Part shown: positions 3,240 through 45,489 of the stretch, piece by piece
Layout of the letters: every line of letters starts with the position of its first letter
Numbering within the stretch: the first letter of the stretch is position 1
Position numbers and translations under genes: made by a program
The notes under the pieces: generated by a model
What the model saw: the letters and a program-made list of their open reading frames with translations, nothing else
Database searches by the model: none
What the model was told of the DNA's origin: nothing
Source: Candidatus Parcubacteria bacterium
GTDB lineage: Bacteria; Patescibacteriota; Minisyncoccia; Phycocordibacterales; Zambryskibacteraceae
Assembly (NCBI GenBank): GCA_019658995.1
Contig: JAIFWN010000002.1
Location: 29,262-93,261 of the forward strand
Direction of reading: 5' to 3'
DNA: 64,000 nucleotides

Positions 3240-4409
3240 TTATTTCAGCAGGTTTGAGAAGGAGGAAAGCAGCAATATCTTCTCATCACCCAGCATCTCC
3301 GGCGACGCCCTTACAAGTTCTCTTGTGAAAGTGTTGGTATCTCCAAGGAGAATGATGCGTCGCCCGGTGAGAACGCTCTCCAAAAATGTTTTCATCAGCT
3401 TTTCGAAGCCGCTTGGCACCACCAGGAAGACTGAATACGGCACAGCGCTGCCTTCGGGAATACTCTCATCCATCTGGCGCCACAGCGATATCCATTTTTC
3501 CTCGACTTCTATGAATACACTGTCTATGGCTCCGGTTGTAGCCTGATCCAAAACTCCGGAGGCAAAGAGCGAGAGGTACGAATATGCGAGCTGGATCGGT
3601 ATTCCGAGCTTTTCCGCCACGGCCTTGGCTATGGATGCCGGGCCGAAGGCGAGCGTCGCGGCAAAGGCGGAACTTCCATGCCGCAGAAACAATACATCAG
3701 TAAATTCTAAAGTCATATCTATGAGCAGAGCCGAGTGCAGACTCTGGAATGAATGCGATAAAACCTTGAAGAAAGCGAACATGAAGCTATGCGTCGCCAT
3801 ACCCCTTCTTATACCGATTGATTTTACAAGCTCGCTTCCTACACTGCGCAGCAGATCCCTGCTGGCGGCACTGAGAAGAAAGCTTACTTCTGCTTTCTCG
3901 ACCCTGTCGCTCAGCGGAGCCTCAGACTCATATCCGTTCAGGTACAGATTGGTAATGGCGGATTCGAATATTTCATCTTGCGAACTATTGTCGTTCCTGA
4001 GTCTTTCCCTGAAGAGTACTTCCTCCTCACTTATAACATTCCTTAACATACTTTTATCAAGAACAAACCCCCCGGGCTTAGCCAGAATCACGGTTTTAAG
4101 ATGGGAGCGGAGCCATGGTGAAGAGAAAGTCACAAGAGCCCTGTGTACAGCACTGCCATAACCGCTTTTGGAAAGATTCGGTATATCTTTGGCGATGGAT
4201 GCAAGAGTTGTTCGCAGTGAAGCGAGCATCGGAACTTCCGGGTATTCTTCTGCGGGATTACTCCCGGTCGTAAACGGTGTACGAATCTTGGACGTTAGCG
4301 CGGGAGTGCCCTTGGGATCGGTATGTACAAGCGCGGCCGCGGTCGATCCGGAGGATATATCGACCACAAGGATGTTTTCACCGGAATCTTTCCGATTCAA
4401 AAAACTCAT
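3240..4409 (-). CDS. hypothetical protein, possibly an actin-like ATPase fold (FtsA/PilM-like)
   Basis: The 389-aa ORF has an N-terminal ILVVDISSGSTAAALV segment resembling the phosphate-1 motif of actin/Hsp70-fold ATPases. The assignment is tentative. Confidence 0.5.
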   Translation of the reverse strand: MSFLNRKDSGENILVVDISSGSTAAALVHTDPKGTPALTSKIRTPFTTGSNPAEEYPEVPMLASLRTTLASIAKDIPNLSKSGYGSAVHRALVTFSSPWLRSHLKTVILAKPGGFVLDKSMLRNVISEEEVLFRERLRNDNSSQDEIFESAITNLYLNGYESEAPLSDRVEKAEVSFLLSAASRDLLRSVGSELVKSIGIRRGMATHSFMFAFFKVLSHSFQSLHSALLIDMTLEFTDVLFLRHGSSAFAATLAFGPASIAKAVAEKLGIPIQLAYSYLSLFASGVLDQATTGAIDSVFIEVEEKWISLWRQMDESIPEGSAVPYSVFLVVPSGFEKLMKTFLESVLTGRRIILLGDTNTFTRELVRASPEMLGDEKILLLSSFSNLLK

Positions 4410-38726: not shown

Positions 38727-40100
38727 CTATCTTTGATCATGCGGATCAAAGATAGATGGTGACAGCTTCTCTCCATTAAGTATCCGGGAAATTCGCTTGC
38801 CTCCGTATATAGAAGGCAATATTCCGACTCCATTGCATCCGAGATTATACATAAGAACGGGGTTCAAGGGCTCAGGACCGACGCGCCGAACACCGTTCGG
38901 CGTATAACCCATGAGTCCATGCCAGCTGAAAATGTATTCGATCTTCTTGTTGGGATCGATGTCGTAGAGCGATTTTACGAAGCTGTCGGTCTCTTTCGAC
39001 ACCTCGTCCTTGTACTCGTATTCAAAAACATATTCTTCCCTGTCAGGGATAGCATGCTGAGGACCACCGAGGCATATGAGGTTATGCCTGCCGTGGTTGT
39101 ACTCATAAGCTCTCCTAGTGAGGTAAAAATACGGATCCTCCATATCATCGAATCCCGGCTGCGGAGTAAGATAATAGCTTATGGCTATAGGAGATTTATT
39201 CATAGTCTCGATATAGCCACTCATCCTGCCGACTACTCCATTGATATCATGATGAAAGCGCGTATCTATCCCGAGACCTGCCGCATTGAAAATCTCAAGA
39301 TTTTCGAACCCATTAGTACAAAGCACGACCCGCCTGACAGTAGCACTGCATGTACCTACATCCAAAAGAGCATGATCATCCTTGAGGACAACCTTATGTA
39401 CTTTGGAATTTTCAAAGATTGAAAACCTGCCGGCATATTTCTTGAGCAGATACTGCGCCACTTCCTCGGTGAAAAGTGCCGAATTCAACACTCCCCTAGG
39501 CTGTTCCGAGACGGCAATGAATCCTGACTTTCCTGTCTCGAGGCGATCGAGCACCTCCTTGTGCGGCACCAGAGTGTAGAAACCAGCGTATTTCTCGGAT
39601 ATATTTTTGCCGAAGTCAGCGTCTTCGGATATGTAGAGCATCTCTGGCTTAAGGCCTCCCGCAGCGCGTAAAATATTTTTCTTCAGATGATCCATGACCT
39701 GATCGAAAGTGGAGAAACCATCATATCCGATGAAGCGGGAAAAATAGATATCGAGCCCTGCCTCGGTATAAATTTGGTCTATCAGTTCCCAAGCCAGTTC
39801 GATGTCACGTTGCCCTTCCGTAGCAAGAACCGCTCCAAACTCCTCTACAAGTTCATGAAACGGACGCTCGAAATAGCTCGCTACCTGTCCGGCATTGTGT
39901 CCTGTGGCACCGTGGGCAATCTTACCCGCCTCGAGAAGAACTATACTCTTGTCGGTATCACGAAGGGCAAAGAAAGCCGTGGAGATGCCGGCGATACCCC
40001 CGCCGACGATAGCCACATCGGCTTCGATATCACTATGCAGTGCCACAATTGGCCTCGTGCGGCTGATCTGGTGTATCCAGGGAGAATAATTTTTAGACAT
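38727..40100 (-). CDS. FAD-dependent oxidoreductase (DAO/glycine oxidase-like)
   Basis: The protein has an N-terminal Rossmann dinucleotide-binding motif DVAIVGGGIAGISTA. Confidence 0.75.
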   Translation of the reverse strand: MSKNYSPWIHQISRTRPIVALHSDIEADVAIVGGGIAGISTAFFALRDTDKSIVLLEAGKIAHGATGHNAGQVASYFERPFHELVEEFGAVLATEGQRDIELAWELIDQIYTEAGLDIYFSRFIGYDGFSTFDQVMDHLKKNILRAAGGLKPEMLYISEDADFGKNISEKYAGFYTLVPHKEVLDRLETGKSGFIAVSEQPRGVLNSALFTEEVAQYLLKKYAGRFSIFENSKVHKVVLKDDHALLDVGTCSATVRRVVLCTNGFENLEIFNAAGLGIDTRFHHDINGVVGRMSGYIETMNKSPIAISYYLTPQPGFDDMEDPYFYLTRRAYEYNHGRHNLICLGGPQHAIPDREEYVFEYEYKDEVSKETDSFVKSLYDIDPNKKIEYIFSWHGLMGYTPNGVRRVGPEPLNPVLMYNLGCNGVGILPSIYGGKRISRILNGEKLSPSIFDPHDQR

Positions 40101-40183
40101 TCAGTGTATGAATTTTAGCATAAAGGGAAACCATCTCATTTGGGACAAATGTGAGACAGTCTCATCTAGCGGGTCAATGTTTG

Positions 40184-40256
40184 CTCCGCGACCAGGGCTC
40201 GAACCTGGGACATCCTCCTTAACAGGGAGGCGCTCTACCAACTGAGCTATCGCGGA
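40184..40256 (-). tRNA. tRNA-Asn (anticodon GUU)
   Basis: The sequence TCCGCGATAGCTCAGTTGGTAGAGCGCCTCCCTGTTAAGGAGGATGTCCCAGGTTCGAGCCCTGGTCGCGGAG folds as a cloverleaf with anticodon loop cuGUUaa. Confidence 0.9.
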
Positions 40257-40495
40257 ATATATTTTCTAACAAATTCTCTACCTCTATAAGACTTGAGCTG
40301 TTTCTCTCGCACTAGGGCTTTCTGTCGCGATTCTACTTCCTCAGTGTAGACAAGCTCCCATCTGCCGCCACCTCTGGATGTATATCCTTTAAGTATTCCA
40401 CTTCTATGCAAATCTAAGCGATTTTTCAGATCTTTAGTCTGACCAATGTAGATTTGGTCACGCTCAGAATTGTATAGAGCATAAACGGTATACAT
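40247..40495 (-). CDS. small GIY-YIG nuclease-domain protein (82 aa)
   Basis: The protein has MYTVYALYNSERDQIYIGQTKDLKNRLDLH, matching the GIY-x10-YIG module. Its last codons (KYIPR*) are encoded by the first nucleotides of tRNA-Asn. Confidence 0.7.
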   Translation of the reverse strand: MYTVYALYNSERDQIYIGQTKDLKNRLDLHRSGILKGYTSRGGGRWELVYTEEVESRQKALVREKQLKSYRGREFVRKYIPR

Positions 40496-40515
40496 CCCTT
40501 GTCTATCCGCTCTAC

Positions 40516-40560
40516 CATCCGCCAGCTGGCGGAGAGCTATCGCGGAATATGAGGATCATA
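40516..40560 (-). repeat. degenerate partial duplicate of the tRNA-Asn 5' half (acceptor and D-arm with a 16-nt insertion)
   Basis: On the minus strand the sequence atattccgcgatagctc[tccgccagctggcgga]tggtagagcgg matches atattccgcgatagctcagttggtagagcgcc of the genuine tRNA. Seventeen nt are identical, after which a GGTAGAGCG block resumes. Confidence 0.6.
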
Positions 40561-40585
40561 CCAAAACAGCACCGGAGAATAAAGA

Positions 40586-41005
40586 CTAAGGGCAAATGAC
40601 CACATCGCCCGGATCGGCTGCCAGATATTTCGATCCCCTGGCATCCACGCACCAGTATCCCCCGCCTCCCGTGAGATTGGCCGAGACAGCGTAATCGGCG
40701 CCATTGGCATTACAGGTCAAGTGGGTCTCGGCTGGATAACTTGCCTCGGTCGTATAGGTAGACATGTTCAGCTCACTTGTAGCAAACATCCCTGACGAGC
40801 AGTCCGAGGCGCTGCCGAAGGTGCCGGCAGACTCATGATAATTTTCCGCGGCGGTACGAAGACTCGTGAGCTGGGATTTGATCTTGGAGTCATTACTCCT
40901 CCCTCTTGCGCTGCTTAAACCACTAAGTATAAGAGTAGAGAGTATAGCGATGATGGCTATAGACATCAGCAATTCTATGAGAGTGAAGCCCTTGCTCGTA
41001 TGCAT
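40586..41005 (-). CDS. type IV pilin / pseudopilin with a prepilin-type N-terminal methylation motif
   Basis: The N-terminus KGFTLIELLMSIAIIAIL is the class III signal peptide. A TATAAT lies just upstream. Confidence 0.8.
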   Translation of the reverse strand: MHTSKGFTLIELLMSIAIIAILSTLILSGLSSARGRSNDSKIKSQLTSLRTAAENYHESAGTFGSASDCSSGMFATSELNMSTYTTEASYPAETHLTCNANGADYAVSANLTGGGGYWCVDARGSKYLAADPGDVVICP

Positions 41006-41017
41006 GAGCTAATTATA

Positions 41018-41046
41018 CATAAAGAAAAAGCCACCCAAGGGTGGCT
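41018..41046 (-). terminator. rho-independent terminator
   Basis: An 8-bp hairpin agccaccc/gggtggct is followed by UUUUUCUUU on the minus strand. Confidence 0.6.
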
Positions 41047-41047
41047 A

Positions 41048-42172
41048 TCAATCAAAAAGTGTTACCTGGAACTTATCTCGCAGTACAAGCTTACGCTCCT
41101 CTGGTTCAGGCGGCCGCGAAGCCAGCACCCTAGGCACATCAAGAAGTAATATCTGCTCGTTGTGCGGTCTGGGCCTCTCACCACGGATTTCAAGAAAACC
41201 GTTGTTGTATTGCCTTGCTGATGGCAGGCTCCAGCGGCAAACGCTTTCAACCGAACATTGTCCACAGGTGGAATAGTACCTATCTACCCGTTCCATTGGC
41301 CAGCTTAGACGCTTGGCAAATACTTCGGTAGCCCTTCCACGATAACCGGAGGTACTTGACCCGTTGCCTTGGCTGACGCTACAGAAATCGCGCGAGAGAT
41401 ACCATAGAGCATTGGAGAAGTCGATAACATCATCGACAGTCGCGCAATACTTGAGGTAGAGCTCACGAGCTACTGGCGAAACTTCGTAGAACTCGTAGCG
41501 GGTTCCGGGCCCCATTTCAAGAGCCAGCAGGGATTCCGTGGATGCCATCACCCTGATGTTGTGCGTATCCACGGGACCGGGATGCATCAGCGGCTTGACC
41601 AGCTTCGCATTGATCAGAAAATAGAGGAACATACTGACCATCTTGTGGCGAAGGCCCATGAATCCGGTTGGAGAGCTTGGATCTCCCTTCCCATTCATGA
41701 AGGTCTCGCAAAGTTCCTCATAATTCCGGGCCTTATCGAAAATGAGCAACGGATTGCTGTCCCAGAAACGCGCCAGCTTCTTGAGATTGAAATTCCAGAA
41801 CCTGACAGTCTCTCGAACGTTGAATCCAAGTCCATTCTCTTTCAGAATCTTGTGCATCCTCGCACGTAGGTTCATGAGTCTGAAGCCGTGCAACATGAAG
41901 GTTTGAGGATCAAACATCCAAGGATGCTCGTCGTAAACCTTGCAAAGCCTCAGGAAGGCCTGCGCGCTATCGATCCGACCCCTCATGTAGAGAAGCCCAA
42001 CCAAGAGCCATACTGCGTGCTGGACACTGCCGGGAATGAGAGTCCTCGGCAGCCTTGCCGGCACCGGCTCAGCATGATCGAATGGCGGAAGCTTACGCCT
42101 CCAGGCGTCGATGAGGGTCCGCACGACCCACTCGGCGCGTTCGTGATTGATCACGTATCGCGGTTGGGTCAT
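41048..42172 (-). CDS. HhH-GPD superfamily DNA glycosylase-like protein (divergent, with an atypical C-terminal Cys cluster)
   Basis: The protein has …GFMGLRHKMVSMFLYF…PVDTHNIRVMAS… (HhH followed by a PVDTH Gly/Pro-Asp loop) and a C-terminal CGQCSVESVC (C-x2-C-x5-C) plus upstream Cys residues. Confidence 0.45.
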   Translation of the reverse strand: MTQPRYVINHERAEWVVRTLIDAWRRKLPPFDHAEPVPARLPRTLIPGSVQHAVWLLVGLLYMRGRIDSAQAFLRLCKVYDEHPWMFDPQTFMLHGFRLMNLRARMHKILKENGLGFNVRETVRFWNFNLKKLARFWDSNPLLIFDKARNYEELCETFMNGKGDPSSPTGFMGLRHKMVSMFLYFLINAKLVKPLMHPGPVDTHNIRVMASTESLLALEMGPGTRYEFYEVSPVARELYLKYCATVDDVIDFSNALWYLSRDFCSVSQGNGSSTSGYRGRATEVFAKRLSWPMERVDRYYSTCGQCSVESVCRWSLPSARQYNNGFLEIRGERPRPHNEQILLLDVPRVLASRPPEPEERKLVLRDKFQVTLFD

Positions 42173-42309
42173 AAGTCCTCTTTGATTGAGAAGGTTCGAT
42201 CTAGTCTTGGAGCATTATATGTTGCAAAAGAAGGTTGTCTACTAGCGGAGACTTCGCCTCATCCTTATAATCTCAGTTAGATTATCGGACTTTAACAAGC
42301 GAGGACTCA

Positions 42310-43104
42310 ATGGCTAGCGCACATGCCGAGTATAACTGGCTGCGTTCGCGAGCCATGGATACTCAGGGTAAGGCAGGTCTGCTTTACGAATGCCTCATGG
42401 CCGAAGCTCTCGGCTGCGAAATTTCAGAACGCGGCAAAGCCGAATATGCTGATATTTACTCCGAAAGGCTAGGTATCCGTGTTGAAATCAAGGCCCGTGG
42501 TGATAACAATCCACACGGATTCAGGGTCGATCAGATACTGCATTACGAATGGGACCTGCCTGCAGAGCTGAGACATACACTTTACGCCGTTGTCCTGTAC
42601 AGAAGCAGACGTGCGATACGCAAGGGCGAGGCTCCGCCCAATGGATTCAGTACCAAGACAACAATGGTTTCGATGCTTCGCTTTCTCAAGACTGACGAGC
42701 AAAGAAACCAGTTCTGGGCAGAAAATGTGACTGTCGTATACCTTCTTGACCTCCGAGTCATCAACGGCCTGGAAAGCCTCTTGGGTACGGTCAAGGGCCA
42801 TTTTGCCGGCAGACCAGATGAGATGGATCTTGTAGTAAATCGAACAGTACTCACTGAATTGTTTCAAGACGCGAGCCTCACAAGCTCGCTGAAGAAGCTC
42901 CATCTGAGTCCATCGGGATGGGCAAAGGGTGTATACCCGATGAAGGTACGCTTCCAGTGTCCGATCATGGATCCGGATGTAAGCGGTCGAGTGATCAGAC
43001 ACCAAACCCTTGACTCAGGCTTCACCATGATTACTCTGGTTCGCCGGAATCTCCACGCCCAGTTGGCTCAGGAGATATCAGCAAGGACTCTCGCACTCGT
43101 GTGA
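42310..43104 (+). CDS. hypothetical protein, possibly a PD-(D/E)xK nuclease fold
   Basis: The protein has an …EYADIYSERLGIRVEIKAR… D…E-x-K-like motif. The gene is divergent from the glycosylase-like gene. Confidence 0.35.
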   Translation: MASAHAEYNWLRSRAMDTQGKAGLLYECLMAEALGCEISERGKAEYADIYSERLGIRVEIKARGDNNPHGFRVDQILHYEWDLPAELRHTLYAVVLYRSRRAIRKGEAPPNGFSTKTTMVSMLRFLKTDEQRNQFWAENVTVVYLLDLRVINGLESLLGTVKGHFAGRPDEMDLVVNRTVLTELFQDASLTSSLKKLHLSPSGWAKGVYPMKVRFQCPIMDPDVSGRVIRHQTLDSGFTMITLVRRNLHAQLAQEISARTLALV

Positions 43105-43132
43105 GGGTCTTTTTTATTGTTATAATAAAGAT

Positions 43133-43681
43133 ATGAAAACTCTCCTTGGCCTCATAGTGGTGGCTGTTATAGCCTTCTTCGGCTGGCAGTATTGGCAAGA
43201 TCATGCAAACATCACTGGCCCAGATATAAAGATTTCCAAGGATACGAGCAGACCAGATCCTTCCAATGCGACCTTCGACTTCGAGGACGGCCCAATCACT
43301 CTGAAAAACGGTTCGGCAAGCACCGAACTTGCGCCGGGAAGCGTCCTCTCACTCGATACCGAGATTACCAGGGACATAACCTACGGAGACGTGAACGGCG
43401 ACGGCAAAAATGACGCCGCACTCATCATCCTGCAGTCCGGCGGAGGCTCAGGCATGTTCGTATATATTGCCGCTTATGTTTCCGGTAACGTTAGTTACAA
43501 GGGTTCCAATGCAATACTTCTCGGTGATCGTGTCTCTCCACAGACTGTATCGATAAACGGAGATGGAATCGTAACCGTAAAATATTTAGACAGAAGATCC
43601 GGTGAGCCGCTGGCCGCCGAACCGACCATAGAGGTAACCAAGTATTTCGTATACCGCGGAGGCCAGCTTGAAGAAAGGTAG
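43133..43681 (+). CDS. hypothetical membrane-anchored or secreted protein
   Basis: The 182-aa ORF has an N-terminal TM/signal (MKTLLGLIVVAVIAFFGW) and a Gly/Asp-rich beta-like domain. Confidence 0.5.
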   Translation: MKTLLGLIVVAVIAFFGWQYWQDHANITGPDIKISKDTSRPDPSNATFDFEDGPITLKNGSASTELAPGSVLSLDTEITRDITYGDVNGDGKNDAALIILQSGGGSGMFVYIAAYVSGNVSYKGSNAILLGDRVSPQTVSINGDGIVTVKYLDRRSGEPLAAEPTIEVTKYFVYRGGQLEER

Positions 43682-43707
43682 AAAACGTGCTTTAATTGTT
43701 CCTCATG

Positions 43708-45489
43708 CAAATCAGGAACATCGCTATTATCGCGCACGTCGACCACGGCAAGACTACGCTCACTGACGCCATCCTCCGCCAGAACGGAATGTTTGCCGAG
43801 GGCGAGAGCATGGACAGCAATGCCCTGGAGAAGGAGCGCGGTATCACTATTTATGCCAAAAATACCTCCCTCTTCTACAAGGATACAAAAATAAACATCG
43901 TAGACACTCCGGGCCACTCTGACTTCGGCTCTGAAGTCGAGCGGGTGCTGCGTTCCATAGACACGGTGCTCCTAGTAGTCGATGCGCAGGAAGGACCTAT
44001 GCCCCAGACCCGCTTCGTCTTGAAGAAATCCCTGGAACTCGGTCTGAAGCCTATAGTAGTTATCAATAAAATAGACAAACCGGCCGCTCGCCCCGACGCC
44101 GTCCACGAGATGGTACTCGAACTCTTCCTAGAACTCGGTGCCGATAACGACCAGATCAACTTTCCCACTGTTTATGCCATCGGCCGCGAGGGCATTGCTA
44201 AGAAAAATTTGACTGATGAATCCAAAGATCTTTCACCCCTACTCGATGTCGTATTGGAAAAGGTCCCGCCAGCTCCGCAGAATCTTGAAGTGCCTGCTCG
44301 CCTTCAGCCCTTCAATCTGGCATACGACAACTTCCTAGGCCGTCTGGCTATTGCTCGTATATACGATGGCAAGATTTGTAACGGACAGGAGGTCTGGGTC
44401 AAAAAGCCTAATGGCGAGAGCTATAAAGGTAAGATCACCAAACTCTTCACCTTTGAGGGTATCAAGCGCATCGAGAGTGCTGAGGCTGTGGCTGGTGACA
44501 TTGTCATGCTCGCAGGATTTTCAGAAATTTATATTGGCGATACCATTGTCGGTTCTCCGGACTCCGAAGCCCTGCCAGCAATTAATGTCGACGAGCCAAC
44601 CATATCTCTCCGGTTCCTAGTGAACGACTCACCCTTCGCCGGCAAGGAGGGTAAGTTCGTCACTGGCCGTCAGATTCGCGAGCGGCTCGAAAGGGAACTC
44701 GAGGTGAACGTGGGGCTCAGAGTCGACTTCTCATCGAGCGAATTTCTCACAGTTTACGGACGCGGCGAACTTCATATCGCCATTCTTTGCGAGAACATGC
44801 GCCGGGAGGGCTTTGAGCTTCAGGTCTCCCAGCCACACGTCATTATGAAGGAGGAGAACGGAGTTAAGACCGAACCGTATGAGGAGGTCGTCATCGACGT
44901 GCCTGAGGAGATGAGCGGAACCATCATATCCCACCTGACAGCCAAGCGTGCCCAGCTTATGGATATGAAAACTGAGAATGGCCAGACCCGCATAATCTTC
45001 GAAGCACCGACAAGGGCGCTTCTCGGCTATCGGGGACAGTTCATTGTGGATACCAAGGGTTTGGGTATCTTTGCCTCCCGCTTCACGGGATTCAAGGAAT
45101 ATGCGGGCCAGATCGAACACCACGATGTTGGCTCGATGATCTCGATGGAGAACGGCAAGGCCCTGGCCTTCGCCCTCGATAACCTGCAGCAGAGGGGTGT
45201 GCTTTATATAGAGCCGTCTGACGAAGTGTATGAGGGTCAGGTTATCGGCAATACCTCCAAGGGCGAGGATTTGTATGTGAACCCAACCAAGGGCAAGCAG
45301 CTCACCAACATGCGCGCATCCGGTTCTGACGAGGGTATCTTTCTAGTTCCGGCTTGGAAATTATCAATCGAGAGGGCAATGGAAATCATGAAAGATGATG
45401 AATACATAGAGATCACTCCCGAGTCCGTGCGTTTACGGAAGCAGCTTCTGACCCAGCAGTCCCGTGCCAAGGCTCAGAGAAAGGCTTAG
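43708..45489 (+). CDS. typA: translational GTPase TypA/BipA
   Basis: The protein has G motifs AHVDHGKTTL, DTPGH and NKIDK, plus an EF-G-like domain architecture. The start is taken at MQIRNIAII. Confidence 0.9.
   Translation, partial: QIRNIAIIAHVDHGKTTLTDAILRQNGMFAEGESMDSNALEKERGITIYAKNTSLFYKDTKINIVDTPGHSDFGSEVERVLRSIDTVLLVVDAQEGPMPQTRFVLKKSLELGLKPIVVINKIDKPAARPDAVHEMVLELFLELGADNDQINFPTVYAIGREGIAKKNLTDESKDLSPLLDVVLEKVPPAPQNLEVPARLQPFNLAYDNFLGRLAIARIYDGKICNGQEVWVKKPNGESYKGKITKLFTFEGIKRIESAEAVAGDIVMLAGFSEIYIGDTIVGSPDSEALPAINVDEPTISLRFLVNDSPFAGKEGKFVTGRQIRERLERELEVNVGLRVDFSSSEFLTVYGRGELHIAILCENMRREGFELQVSQPHVIMKEENGVKTEPYEEVVIDVPEEMSGTIISHLTAKRAQLMDMKTENGQTRIIFEAPTRALLGYRGQFIVDTKGLGIFASRFTGFKEYAGQIEHHDVGSMISMENGKALAFALDNLQQRGVLYIEPSDEVYEGQVIGNTSKGEDLYVNPTKGKQLTNMRASGSDEGIFLVPAWKLSIERAMEIMKDDEYIEITPESVRLRKQLLTQQSRAKAQRKA

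Follow-up and report, generated by a model that had tools for sequence, protein, structure and literature searches.

A probable target-specific GIY-YIG nuclease cassette in the 5′ part of tRNA-Asn genes of Patescibacteria

SegB, a homing GIY-YIG nuclease of phages, has a conserved tRNA motif as its recognition site and brings about segmental amplification at tRNA genes (PMC2330249; PMC13096335). Another well-described class, the integrative elements that target tRNA genes, has an integrase, carries a replacement 3′ end on the element (attP) and is kilobases long. Here we describe a locus in a 64-kb stretch of DNA from Candidatus Parcubacteria bacterium (contig JAIFWN010000002.1; the whole stretch is called the window), in which an open reading frame (ORF) for an 82-aa GIY-YIG nuclease ends inside an intact tRNA-Asn gene, and a partial copy of the 5′ end of the same tRNA (the relic), split by a 16-nt palindrome (PAL), lies upstream of the ORF. 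Among described systems SegB is the nearest functional analogue, and UPF0213 and Slx1 are the nearest structural relatives. The full-text literature that covers GIY-YIG together with tRNA-Asn, Patescibacteria, Parcubacteria or UPF0213 was not found to describe the cassette; the cassette family is widespread in Patescibacteria and apparently undescribed so far.

We consider it probable that a selfish, target-specific cassette, composed of PAL, a short tRNA-derived stretch, a leader and the 82-aa GIY-YIG gene, inserted into the 5′ part of tRNA-Asn. As judged by sequence comparison, this insertion went along with duplication of the target's own 5′ end, leaving a complete tRNA after the ORF and the native promoter upstream of the relic, and among relatives the cassette is gained, decays and is lost.

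Anatomy, empty sites and targets of the cassette

All features of the cassette are on the minus strand of the window, and are listed here in their 5′ to 3′ order on that strand, with the downstream repeat copy, which overlaps the ORF and the tRNA, placed last.

40555..40563, minus strand: putative native tRNA promoter, extended −10 box TGgTATGAT, as read from the sequence
40534..40550, minus strand: relic left arm, ATAT followed by TCCGCGATAGCTC (tRNA nt 1-13), an exact repeat; taken as the original 5′ end by analogy with the pair L006/L123 (below)
40518..40533, no strand assigned: PAL, perfect 16-nt palindrome TCCGCCAGCTGGCGGA in place of tRNA nt 14-16, single copy in the window
40508..40517, minus strand: relic right arm TGGTAGAGCG, equal to tRNA nt 17-26 (D-loop and 3′ strand of the D-stem), a 10-nt exact repeat found by comparison with the local tRNA
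40496..40507, minus strand: 12-nt leader GATAGACAAGGG, the gap between relic and ATG, read from the sequence
40247..40495, minus strand: GIY-YIG nuclease ORF, 82 aa plus stop (ORF list; Pfam PF01541, E = 1.2e-15)
40183..40256, minus strand: intact tRNA-Asn(GUU) without encoded CCA (ARAGORN; Rfam RF00005, 69.8 bits, E = 5.6e-15)
40244..40260, minus strand: second copy, on the downstream side, of the direct repeat of 17 nt (ATAT and tRNA nt 1-13), from the repeat search

The final ORF codons ATT CCG CGA TAG coincide with tRNA nt −2 to +10: the stop TAG (40249-40247) is U8-A9-G10 of the tRNA and the C-terminal I-P-R also overlaps it, just as an earlier sequence-only reading of this DNA had placed the end of an 82-aa GIY-YIG ORF in the first nucleotides of tRNA-Asn(GUU); ARAGORN and Rfam agree on the tRNA, and Pfam identifies the GIY-YIG domain. 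That reading had also described a second tRNA 5′ end of 17 identical nt, a 16-nt insertion and a repeated D-arm motif. The 17-nt repeat ATATTCCGCGATAGCTC is indeed exact, with two copies in the 64 kb (40534-40550 and 40244-40260, spacing 290 nt), but it consists of 4 nt of upstream sequence plus tRNA nt 1-13; the D-arm motif TGGTAGAGCG does occur twice, at 40508-40517 and 40231-40240; and the 16 nt are present, but as a perfect palindrome taking the place of A14 G15 U16 (AGT in DNA), so that 16 nt stand for 3 with a net gain of 13 nt. The PAL hairpin has a 6-bp stem and a 4-nt loop. Relative to an empty site the extra DNA comes to ∼290 nt rather than the 260 bp first proposed, and its sole cargo is the 249-nt GIY-YIG ORF. 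Neither a second GIY-YIG copy nor further tRNA fragments were found in the window, and Rfam reported no RNA family other than the tRNA at the locus. The putative −10 box TGgTATGAT ends 8 nt 5′ of relic +1, in a position that matches naive sites, where the same kind of box stands at the same distance to tRNA +1; a scan for consensus promoters missed it, as a good −35 is lacking.

Metagenome contigs with the tRNA-Asn allele of the window were collected through its exact 34-nt anticodon-arm/T-arm sequence (66 contigs, 47 of them with at least 250 nt upstream). A GIY-YIG ORF was present in 7 of these 47, two belonging to the family of the window with PAL (L094, L100) and five to other GIY-YIG subfamilies abutting the tRNA (L134, L137, L086, L097, L139); three contigs had mini-cassettes without an ORF (L104, L116, L120) and three had 3′ remnants of the ORF (L121, L140, L143). 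The remaining contigs were naive, with a −10 box 7–13 nt 5′ of tRNA +1 and YAT conserved at positions −3 to −1. Empty-site alleles, the first check that had been suggested for this locus, therefore exist, and most contigs of the same tRNA-Asn allele lack the ORF. Further decay forms were seen as mini-cassettes (L015, L070) and ORF 3′ remnants (L081, L093, L095), and tandem and ORF-less copies occur in L015, L057, L061, L070, L078, L046 and L051.

L006, which is occupied, and L123, which is empty, form an orthologous pair: their upstream flanks have 79% identity across 988 nt, the promoter-proximal stretch is near-identical and the tRNAs are 100% identical. L006 carries ∼317 nt extra, bounded by the duplicated tRNA 5′ end, and 16 nt of L123 align to both L006 copies. 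Because the upstream flank and promoter are common to both members of this pair, the upstream partial copy is the original tRNA 5′ end with its native promoter. Hence the same site is occupied or empty among relatives, and the mini-cassettes and ORF 3′ remnants show a cycle of invasion, degeneration and loss.

The spread of the arrangement was assessed by a scan with one genome per species, which gave at least 519 relatives among the matches listed; the best 80 loci were fetched and analysed, and counts over 81 loci comprise these Patescibacteria loci plus the window. The targets were distributed as follows.

65 loci: tRNA-Asn(GTT) directly downstream (ARAGORN)
7 loci: tRNA-Asn with a group I intron in the anticodon loop (Rfam)
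6 loci: tRNA-Asn likewise interrupted, cut by the contig end or masked (sequence reading)
1 locus, L047: tRNA-Thr(CGT)
1 locus, L040: leuS

Thus tRNA-Asn is the target in 78 of the 80 loci from other Patescibacteria species. The ORF stop falls exactly at tRNA nt 8-10 in 59/81 loci, and the C-terminal tripeptide tracks the local acceptor stem (IPR, IPG, IPL, IPV, IPA, IPT or IRE). No recent movement is evident for the window genome, and the arrangement is far wider and stabler than a sporadic footprint.

The relic follows its host in the same way. Its arms match the local tRNA perfectly (13/13, 14/14 or 8/8 positions) in 66 of the 78 parsed loci, and the right arm extends to tRNA nt 26-37, host-specific anticodon stem included; on exact alignment the repeat is thus tRNA-derived. 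PAL always stands in place of 3 nt, which are D-loop nt 14-16 (or 15-17) in most loci and nt 9-11 in nine. The target-derived duplication measures 14–40 bp, its upstream copy being split by PAL and continuing beyond it, with variable boundaries. In some tRNA-Asn loci the repeat takes in 5–7 nt of locus-specific sequence 5′ of +1, and an upstream match of at least 5 nt between relic and ORF end was found in 17% of loci as against 4% in shuffled pairs. Pairing of the relic with the tRNA 3′ strand was considered as a cause of the co-variation and found unsupported: among six loci whose relic and tRNA differ in the acceptor strand, two retain pairing by way of G-U and in four it is broken.

The two remaining targets extend this pattern. 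At L047:2955-3309 a member of the same family (67% identity) stands with PAL at tRNA-Thr(CGT), and both 5′-end copies are of Thr type. At L040:1996-2301 the cassette lies inside the 5′ end of leuS, in the order leuS-start relic (11 codons), PAL, GGCAGAAT..., GIY-YIG domain and new leuS start; the GIY-YIG domain has no ATG of its own and is fused in frame to relic and PAL, and the regenerated leuS begins at 2298, overlapping the nuclease stop. The unit moved into leuS starts exactly at PAL, with the GGYAGA stretch after it. The target's own 5′ end is therefore duplicated at tRNA-Asn, tRNA-Thr and leuS. The proposal of the sequence-only reading that an insertion into a tRNA gene had regenerated the disrupted end is borne out by the L006/L123 pair and the relics that track the local tRNA, and insertion and loss by the remnants, mini-cassettes, tandem copies, three other subfamilies and the copies at tRNA-Thr and leuS.

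Several observations stand beside these results. The leuS 5′ coding sequence contains TAGCCCA-N7-TAGAGCGC, which is D-arm-like, and in L047 a further D-arm-like sequence at 3300-3360 is split by a long CCCGCC...GGCGGG hairpin. The three other GIY-YIG subfamilies (84, 89 and 78 aa; 36–40% identical to the window protein where tblastn aligned) form cassettes at this tRNA-Asn 5′ site too (L134, L137, L086, L097, L139; ∼420 nt upstream of the tRNA), each with a relic of its own that is split by different GC-rich hairpins, at nt 3/4, 7/8, 9/10 or 23/25.

Contigs end within 60 nt of tRNA-Asn on its 5′ side in 17 of the 66 and on its 3′ side in 3 of the 66, which is compatible with heterogeneity within populations at the 5′ side; the cassette would explain the recurrent contig breaks at tRNA-Asn in metagenome assemblies of the candidate phyla radiation (CPR). 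Seven contigs (L081, L093, L095, L114, L127, L130, L146; first 40–90 nt noted) start ∼52 nt 5′ of tRNA-Asn, within what is left of a degenerate ORF (...DKVLNIPR*). A conserved stretch of that remnant, TGATAAAGT, resembles an extended −10 box and may now drive the tRNA.

For the window itself no orthologous empty site was found: the DAO-type oxidoreductase and the pilin in the flank had no record in exact look-ups, and the metagenome loci have in common with this flank only the more distant TypA/BipA gene. Between tRNA-Asn and TypA/BipA (43696-45489), the stretch 40586-43681 holds a pilin-like gene and three ORFs without a Pfam match above cut-off, one of them 374 aa long at 41048-42172. It looks like a variable region, since the TypA/BipA homologue is ∼600 nt away from the tRNA in L087, the one relative checked, and at most a few kb away in ten others.

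In a Jacksonbacteria-like species (L202-L210; protein P0040) the upstream order dnaG, rpoD, AAA_28, GIY-YIG is constant, whereas tRNA-Asn is followed by a type I restriction–modification module, by a helix-turn-helix gene, or by a DNA methylase together with a large serine recombinase; this downstream variation is classical island integration at the tRNA 3′ side. In several cassette-carrying Patescibacteria a group I intron (Rfam Intron_gpI, 59–88 bits) splits the tRNA-Asn anticodon loop after CTGT, and L005 and L041 have an apparent ORF within or adjoining it.

Intron_gpI: L001:3264-3514, L005:3635-3879, L012:3261-3522, L013:3261-3497
Intron_gpI: L050:3290-3565, L056:1063-1334, L057:3348-3562

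The nuclease and the palindrome

The window protein has an NCBI counterpart of 100% identity, entered as 'GIY-YIG nuclease family protein [Candidatus Parcubacteria bacterium]', and matches PF01541 over residues 1-71 with 57.9 bits against a cut-off of 22.6. Its residues Y5, Y16-I17-G18, R26, H30 and E64 are invariant in 24 sequences; by analogy with I-TevI we take these to have catalytic roles (GIY/YIG tyrosines, Arg, metal-binding Glu). The family of 82/83 aa retains 55–67% identity over many candidate phyla, with 21 invariant positions. An AlphaFold2 model (pLDDT 91.4) has strands at 2-9, 14-20 and 46-54 plus helices, giving an alpha/beta fold with a three-stranded sheet. In Foldseek, UPF0213 protein BH0048 (PDB 1zg2, 32% identity) ranked first and the Slx1 nuclease domain took ranks 2-5 (TM 0.60–0.69, up to 35% identity), with I-TevI and UvrC below them. 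The sole match in a PDB sequence search was weak and to I-TevI, and TIGR01453 'group I intron endonuclease' also matched weakly; no NCBIfam model reached its cut-off for the window protein, nor was there a PHROG match.

Codon comparisons of aligned pairs gave a dN/dS (ratio of nonsynonymous to synonymous change) of 0.035–0.15, i.e. strong purifying selection. Based on this ratio and on the invariant Y5, Y16, R26, H30 and E64, sequence and model together describe a functional minimal UPF0213/Slx1-like GIY-YIG nuclease. The 82 aa hold the catalytic domain alone, and neither Pfam nor the AlphaFold2 model gave a DNA-binding domain; a single-domain protein without C-terminal RING/zinc finger, it is not Slx1 proper. 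Small GIY-YIG proteins of this kind had been called 'classic' homing or mobile nucleases at the outset. The insertion of a cassette is supported, but a protein that comprises an 82-aa catalytic domain only and groups closest with UPF0213/Slx1 is, by these comparisons, not a 'classic' homing endonuclease. Two other identities were rejected: a defence system, for which PADLOC gave sub-threshold matches only (E = 3e-4 over 29 residues), and a phage origin, as PAL followed by GGTAG had 0 matches in IMG/VR and PHROG none.

In 80 of the 81 loci the ORF is closely preceded by PAL, and 54 copies are exact. Its variation is nearly restricted to the four central bases, which form the loop; the stem is near-invariant, and one copy has a compensatory stem change. 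In the window, the leader folds around the PAL hairpin (−25.8 kcal/mol, z = −2.5) and the tRNA cloverleaf forms independently (centroid). Two hairpins each are present in L006 and L094, and nested or extended PALs in L044, L050, L064, L066, L067 and L068. The other GIY-YIG subfamilies have hairpins CCCGCC...GGCGGG and CCTGCC...GGCAGG at other relic positions.

Solo copies of PAL also occur, ∼10 in ∼0.9 Mb of other Patescibacteria DNA, where the estimated chance number is ∼0.01.

Solo PAL TCCGCCAGCTGGCGGA: L026:299-314, L042:376-391, L046:1562-1577 (fmt), L143:2757-2772
Solo PAL: L100:129-144 and L104:3557-3572 (hpf), L049:299-314 (upstream of lepA), L004:3337-3352

Several of them lie in frame inside ORFs, where the reading is PPAGG or RQLAD. 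The PAL in L046 fmt is a replacement specific to its lineage, with QPE-IRQLAD-DEF where 11 close homologues have QPE-KID-EDF, and in hpf PAL is preserved via a compensatory double change (TCC..GGA to TTC..GAA). In IMG/VR, PAL alone had 55 matches, mostly in high-GC contigs without GIY-YIG and near the estimated chance number. PALs at L035:3381 and at L037:3389 and 3557 stand downstream of tRNA-Asn and are followed by tRNA 3′-end fragments (T-arm, acceptor 3′ strand), which suggests similar events at the tRNA 3′ side.

Proposed mechanism and competing explanations

Under the selfish-cassette explanation, the native tRNA promoter would drive one transcript containing the relic, the PAL hairpin, the nuclease mRNA and tRNA-Asn. 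An RNase P cut at tRNA +1 would free the tRNA and remove the last three codons and the stop of the mRNA; tRNA maturation and full-length nuclease translation would then compete for each transcript, keeping the nuclease low. The Slx1/UPF0213-like nuclease probably selects a structure or a short motif, and it would nick or cut tRNA-Asn genes around the D-arm, which is the part of the relic that PAL marks. The cassette would be copied from an occupied allele by homing-like repair, or be inserted across a staggered break, which would account for the 14–40 bp duplication of the 5′ end, with PAL as the functional left end. If lineages repeatedly lost the cassette and were invaded again, the relic would stay equal to the local tRNA and the nuclease under purifying selection without interspecies transfers; such a course fits the maximal identity of 90% in unrelated flanks, the partial congruence of protein similarity with tRNA type and the fixation in one species. 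If so, the cassette would add a variant to the theme of free-standing homing nucleases, with an unusual answer to the cost of hitting a tRNA gene that is essential and present once: it duplicates the 5′ end, takes over the promoter and ends its ORF in the tRNA. It would also offer a testable case of a minimal GIY-YIG domain that is target-specific although it has no DNA-binding module, with a bearing on substrate choice in UPF0213/Slx1-like proteins, and it predicts a coupling of tRNA processing with nuclease translation.

A number of points weigh against this explanation. The intact tRNA of an occupied allele keeps the presumed target, and no immunity mechanism is evident; the 82 aa contain no DNA-binding domain to account for site specificity. 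Simple homing from a tRNA-Asn donor cannot yield the all-Thr duplication in L047, and the upstream match of 17% versus 4% exceeds its null modestly. No sign of recent interspecies transfer was seen among the loci, the maximal ORF nucleotide identity with unrelated flanks being 90% (L038/L043); protein similarity partly parallels the host tRNA type, and the cassette is fixed in all 10 contigs examined of one species. Strong purifying selection and phylum-wide breadth are also compatible with a host-useful gene. Finally, transcription from the relic promoter, the competition with RNase P, and the cleavage and specificity of the nuclease are all steps that we infer.

Several of these points would follow as well if the gene were a domesticated housekeeping gene, i.e. 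a UPF0213-type repair or structure-specific nuclease of the host that was fused once, early, to the tRNA-Asn unit, has been inherited vertically and often lost, and in which relic and PAL are regulatory (a hairpin or operator in the 5′ untranslated region). Its presence in many candidate phyla, the dN/dS of 0.035–0.15, fixation within a species, partial congruence of protein and tRNA type, absence of near-identical copies in unrelated flanks and the non-mobile nature of its closest solved relatives, UPF0213 and Slx1, would all be expected of such a gene. We nevertheless regard this explanation as unlikely. The orthologous empty site retains an intact native promoter, and the relic tracks changes of the local tRNA, for which one ancient event is insufficient without ongoing re-copying; moreover, the junctions vary (nt 26-37), PAL takes one of two positions, three other GIY-YIG subfamilies share site and architecture, decayed remnants and mini-cassettes exist, and there are copies at tRNA-Thr and in leuS.

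Alternatively, PAL itself could be the minimal mobile or repair-templated element and the GIY-YIG protein its cognate nuclease, similar to REP/RAYT, so that the cassette at tRNA-Asn is the 'home' copy and the solo PALs are products of the same enzyme. The near-constant company of PAL and the GIY-YIG family of the window (80/81 loci), the almost invariant stem with its variable loop, and the different GC-rich hairpins of the other subfamilies speak for it, as do the solo PALs, which are far above chance in ∼0.9 Mb of flanking Patescibacteria DNA and in frame in ORFs, the lineage-specific PAL in L046 fmt that is absent from 11 close homologues, the compensatory double change in hpf, and the exact left boundary that PAL forms in leuS. 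The copy number is low, however, with one PAL in the 64-kb window, solo PALs are also found on contigs without a window-family GIY-YIG nearby, and nested PALs could come from slippage; we know of no precedent for a 16-bp mobile unit. As a whole, we hold this explanation to be doubtful. PAL may instead be the site of the nuclease, a scar left by repair, or an RNA element.

As a tentative extension, PAL and the 82-aa GIY-YIG may form a two-part mobile system, in which the nuclease acts on hairpin or branched DNA including the D-arm and makes staggered cuts close to the 5′ ends of genes with high transcription; the cassette would use PAL for its entry, duplicating the 5′ end and capturing the promoter (at leuS, the start codon), and PAL would also be deposited alone at other breaks, in frame within genes too. 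If this were true, no mobilisable DNA unit smaller than PAL would be known, and the cassette would capture promoters without harm, since it rebuilds its target. The in-gene PALs point to an unrecognised insertion or repair process in these reduced genomes. PAL may prove to be the more novel part.

A descent from an intron-encoded homing endonuclease seems very improbable to us. Here the ORF would once have resided in a group I intron of the tRNA-Asn anticodon loop, rearranged with an intact tRNA copy into 5′ exon, ORF and tRNA, and there are facts in its favour: group I introns occupy that loop, after CTGT, in at least seven related loci, the relic runs exactly to nt 35-37 and then ATG in L077, L079, L036 and L031, and TIGR01453 matches, if weakly. 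But the window has no ribozyme remnant, as a search of 39900-40900 with E up to 10 gave no Intron_gpI match; where an intron and the cassette are both present they are distinct from each other, introns being found only inside the downstream tRNA of other loci; leuS, an intron-free target, has the same architecture; and the fold is nearer to UPF0213/Slx1 than to I-TevI. Lastly, an origin from an integrase-type island that targets tRNA genes (attL/attR), or from a duplication by chance or in assembly, is effectively refuted: tRNA genes are classical integration sites, and islands with a serine recombinase or restriction–modification system do vary downstream of tRNA-Asn in one species, but the repeat is of the 5′ rather than the 3′ end and is a copy of the local target at tRNA-Thr and leuS too, the ∼290-nt insert has the 249-nt ORF as sole cargo and no tyrosine or serine recombinase, the 17-mer is expected 0.01 times in shuffled sequence, which rules out a chance repeat, and independent assemblies of many studies have the same structure. 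As regards a DNA transposon, no inverted repeats were found at the two ends of the insert (repeat search) and no transposase domain (Pfam).

Comparison with known systems

Like tRNA-targeted integrative elements, the cassette is inserted in a tRNA gene, an intact tRNA is restored, and a partial tRNA copy is left at the other end; unlike them, it duplicates the 5′ end from the local target and has no recombinase. Homing by gene conversion proceeds without target-site duplication, which is not the pattern of the cassette with its duplicated target 5′ end. With the intron endonucleases of I-TevI type it has the GIY-YIG fold in common, I-TevI also binds a target-like operator, and tRNA genes of cassette-bearing organisms carry group I introns; unlike in these systems, there is no ribozyme, the ORF is not spliced out, and the intact gene is regenerated by duplication.

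The REP/RAYT systems resemble it in that a single nuclease gene is flanked by its own short GC-rich palindrome, with extra copies of the palindrome dispersed. RAYTs, however, are HUH/Y1 enzymes whereas the cassette encodes a GIY-YIG protein, and REPs are intergenic and abundant whereas PAL is a low-copy 16-bp unit that also lies in frame in ORFs.

In structure, UPF0213 (COG2827; BH0048, PDB 1zg2) and Slx1 (PDB 6seh, 7cq3) share with the cassette protein a minimal GIY-YIG/URI domain of similar size at 32–35% identity. Slx1 is a structure-specific nuclease for branched DNA that, unlike the cassette protein, has a RING/zinc domain and needs Slx4. To our knowledge, UPF0213 proteins have not been linked to tRNA genes or to mobility.

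In function, SegB (T4/T6) and other free-standing GIY-YIG homing endonuclease genes are like the cassette in that the nuclease gene lies among or adjoins tRNA genes and a conserved tRNA-gene motif is the target, and both show presence/absence polymorphism in relatives and have segments of tRNA genes duplicated or amplified. The phage protein SegB, ∼220 aa long, includes a DNA-binding region and recognises the T-psi-C motif, whereas the cassette encodes only a cellular (CPR) catalytic domain of 82 aa. Unlike SegB, moreover, the cassette is nearly exclusive to tRNA-Asn, lies within the 5′ half of the gene, ends inside the tRNA and is accompanied by its palindrome.

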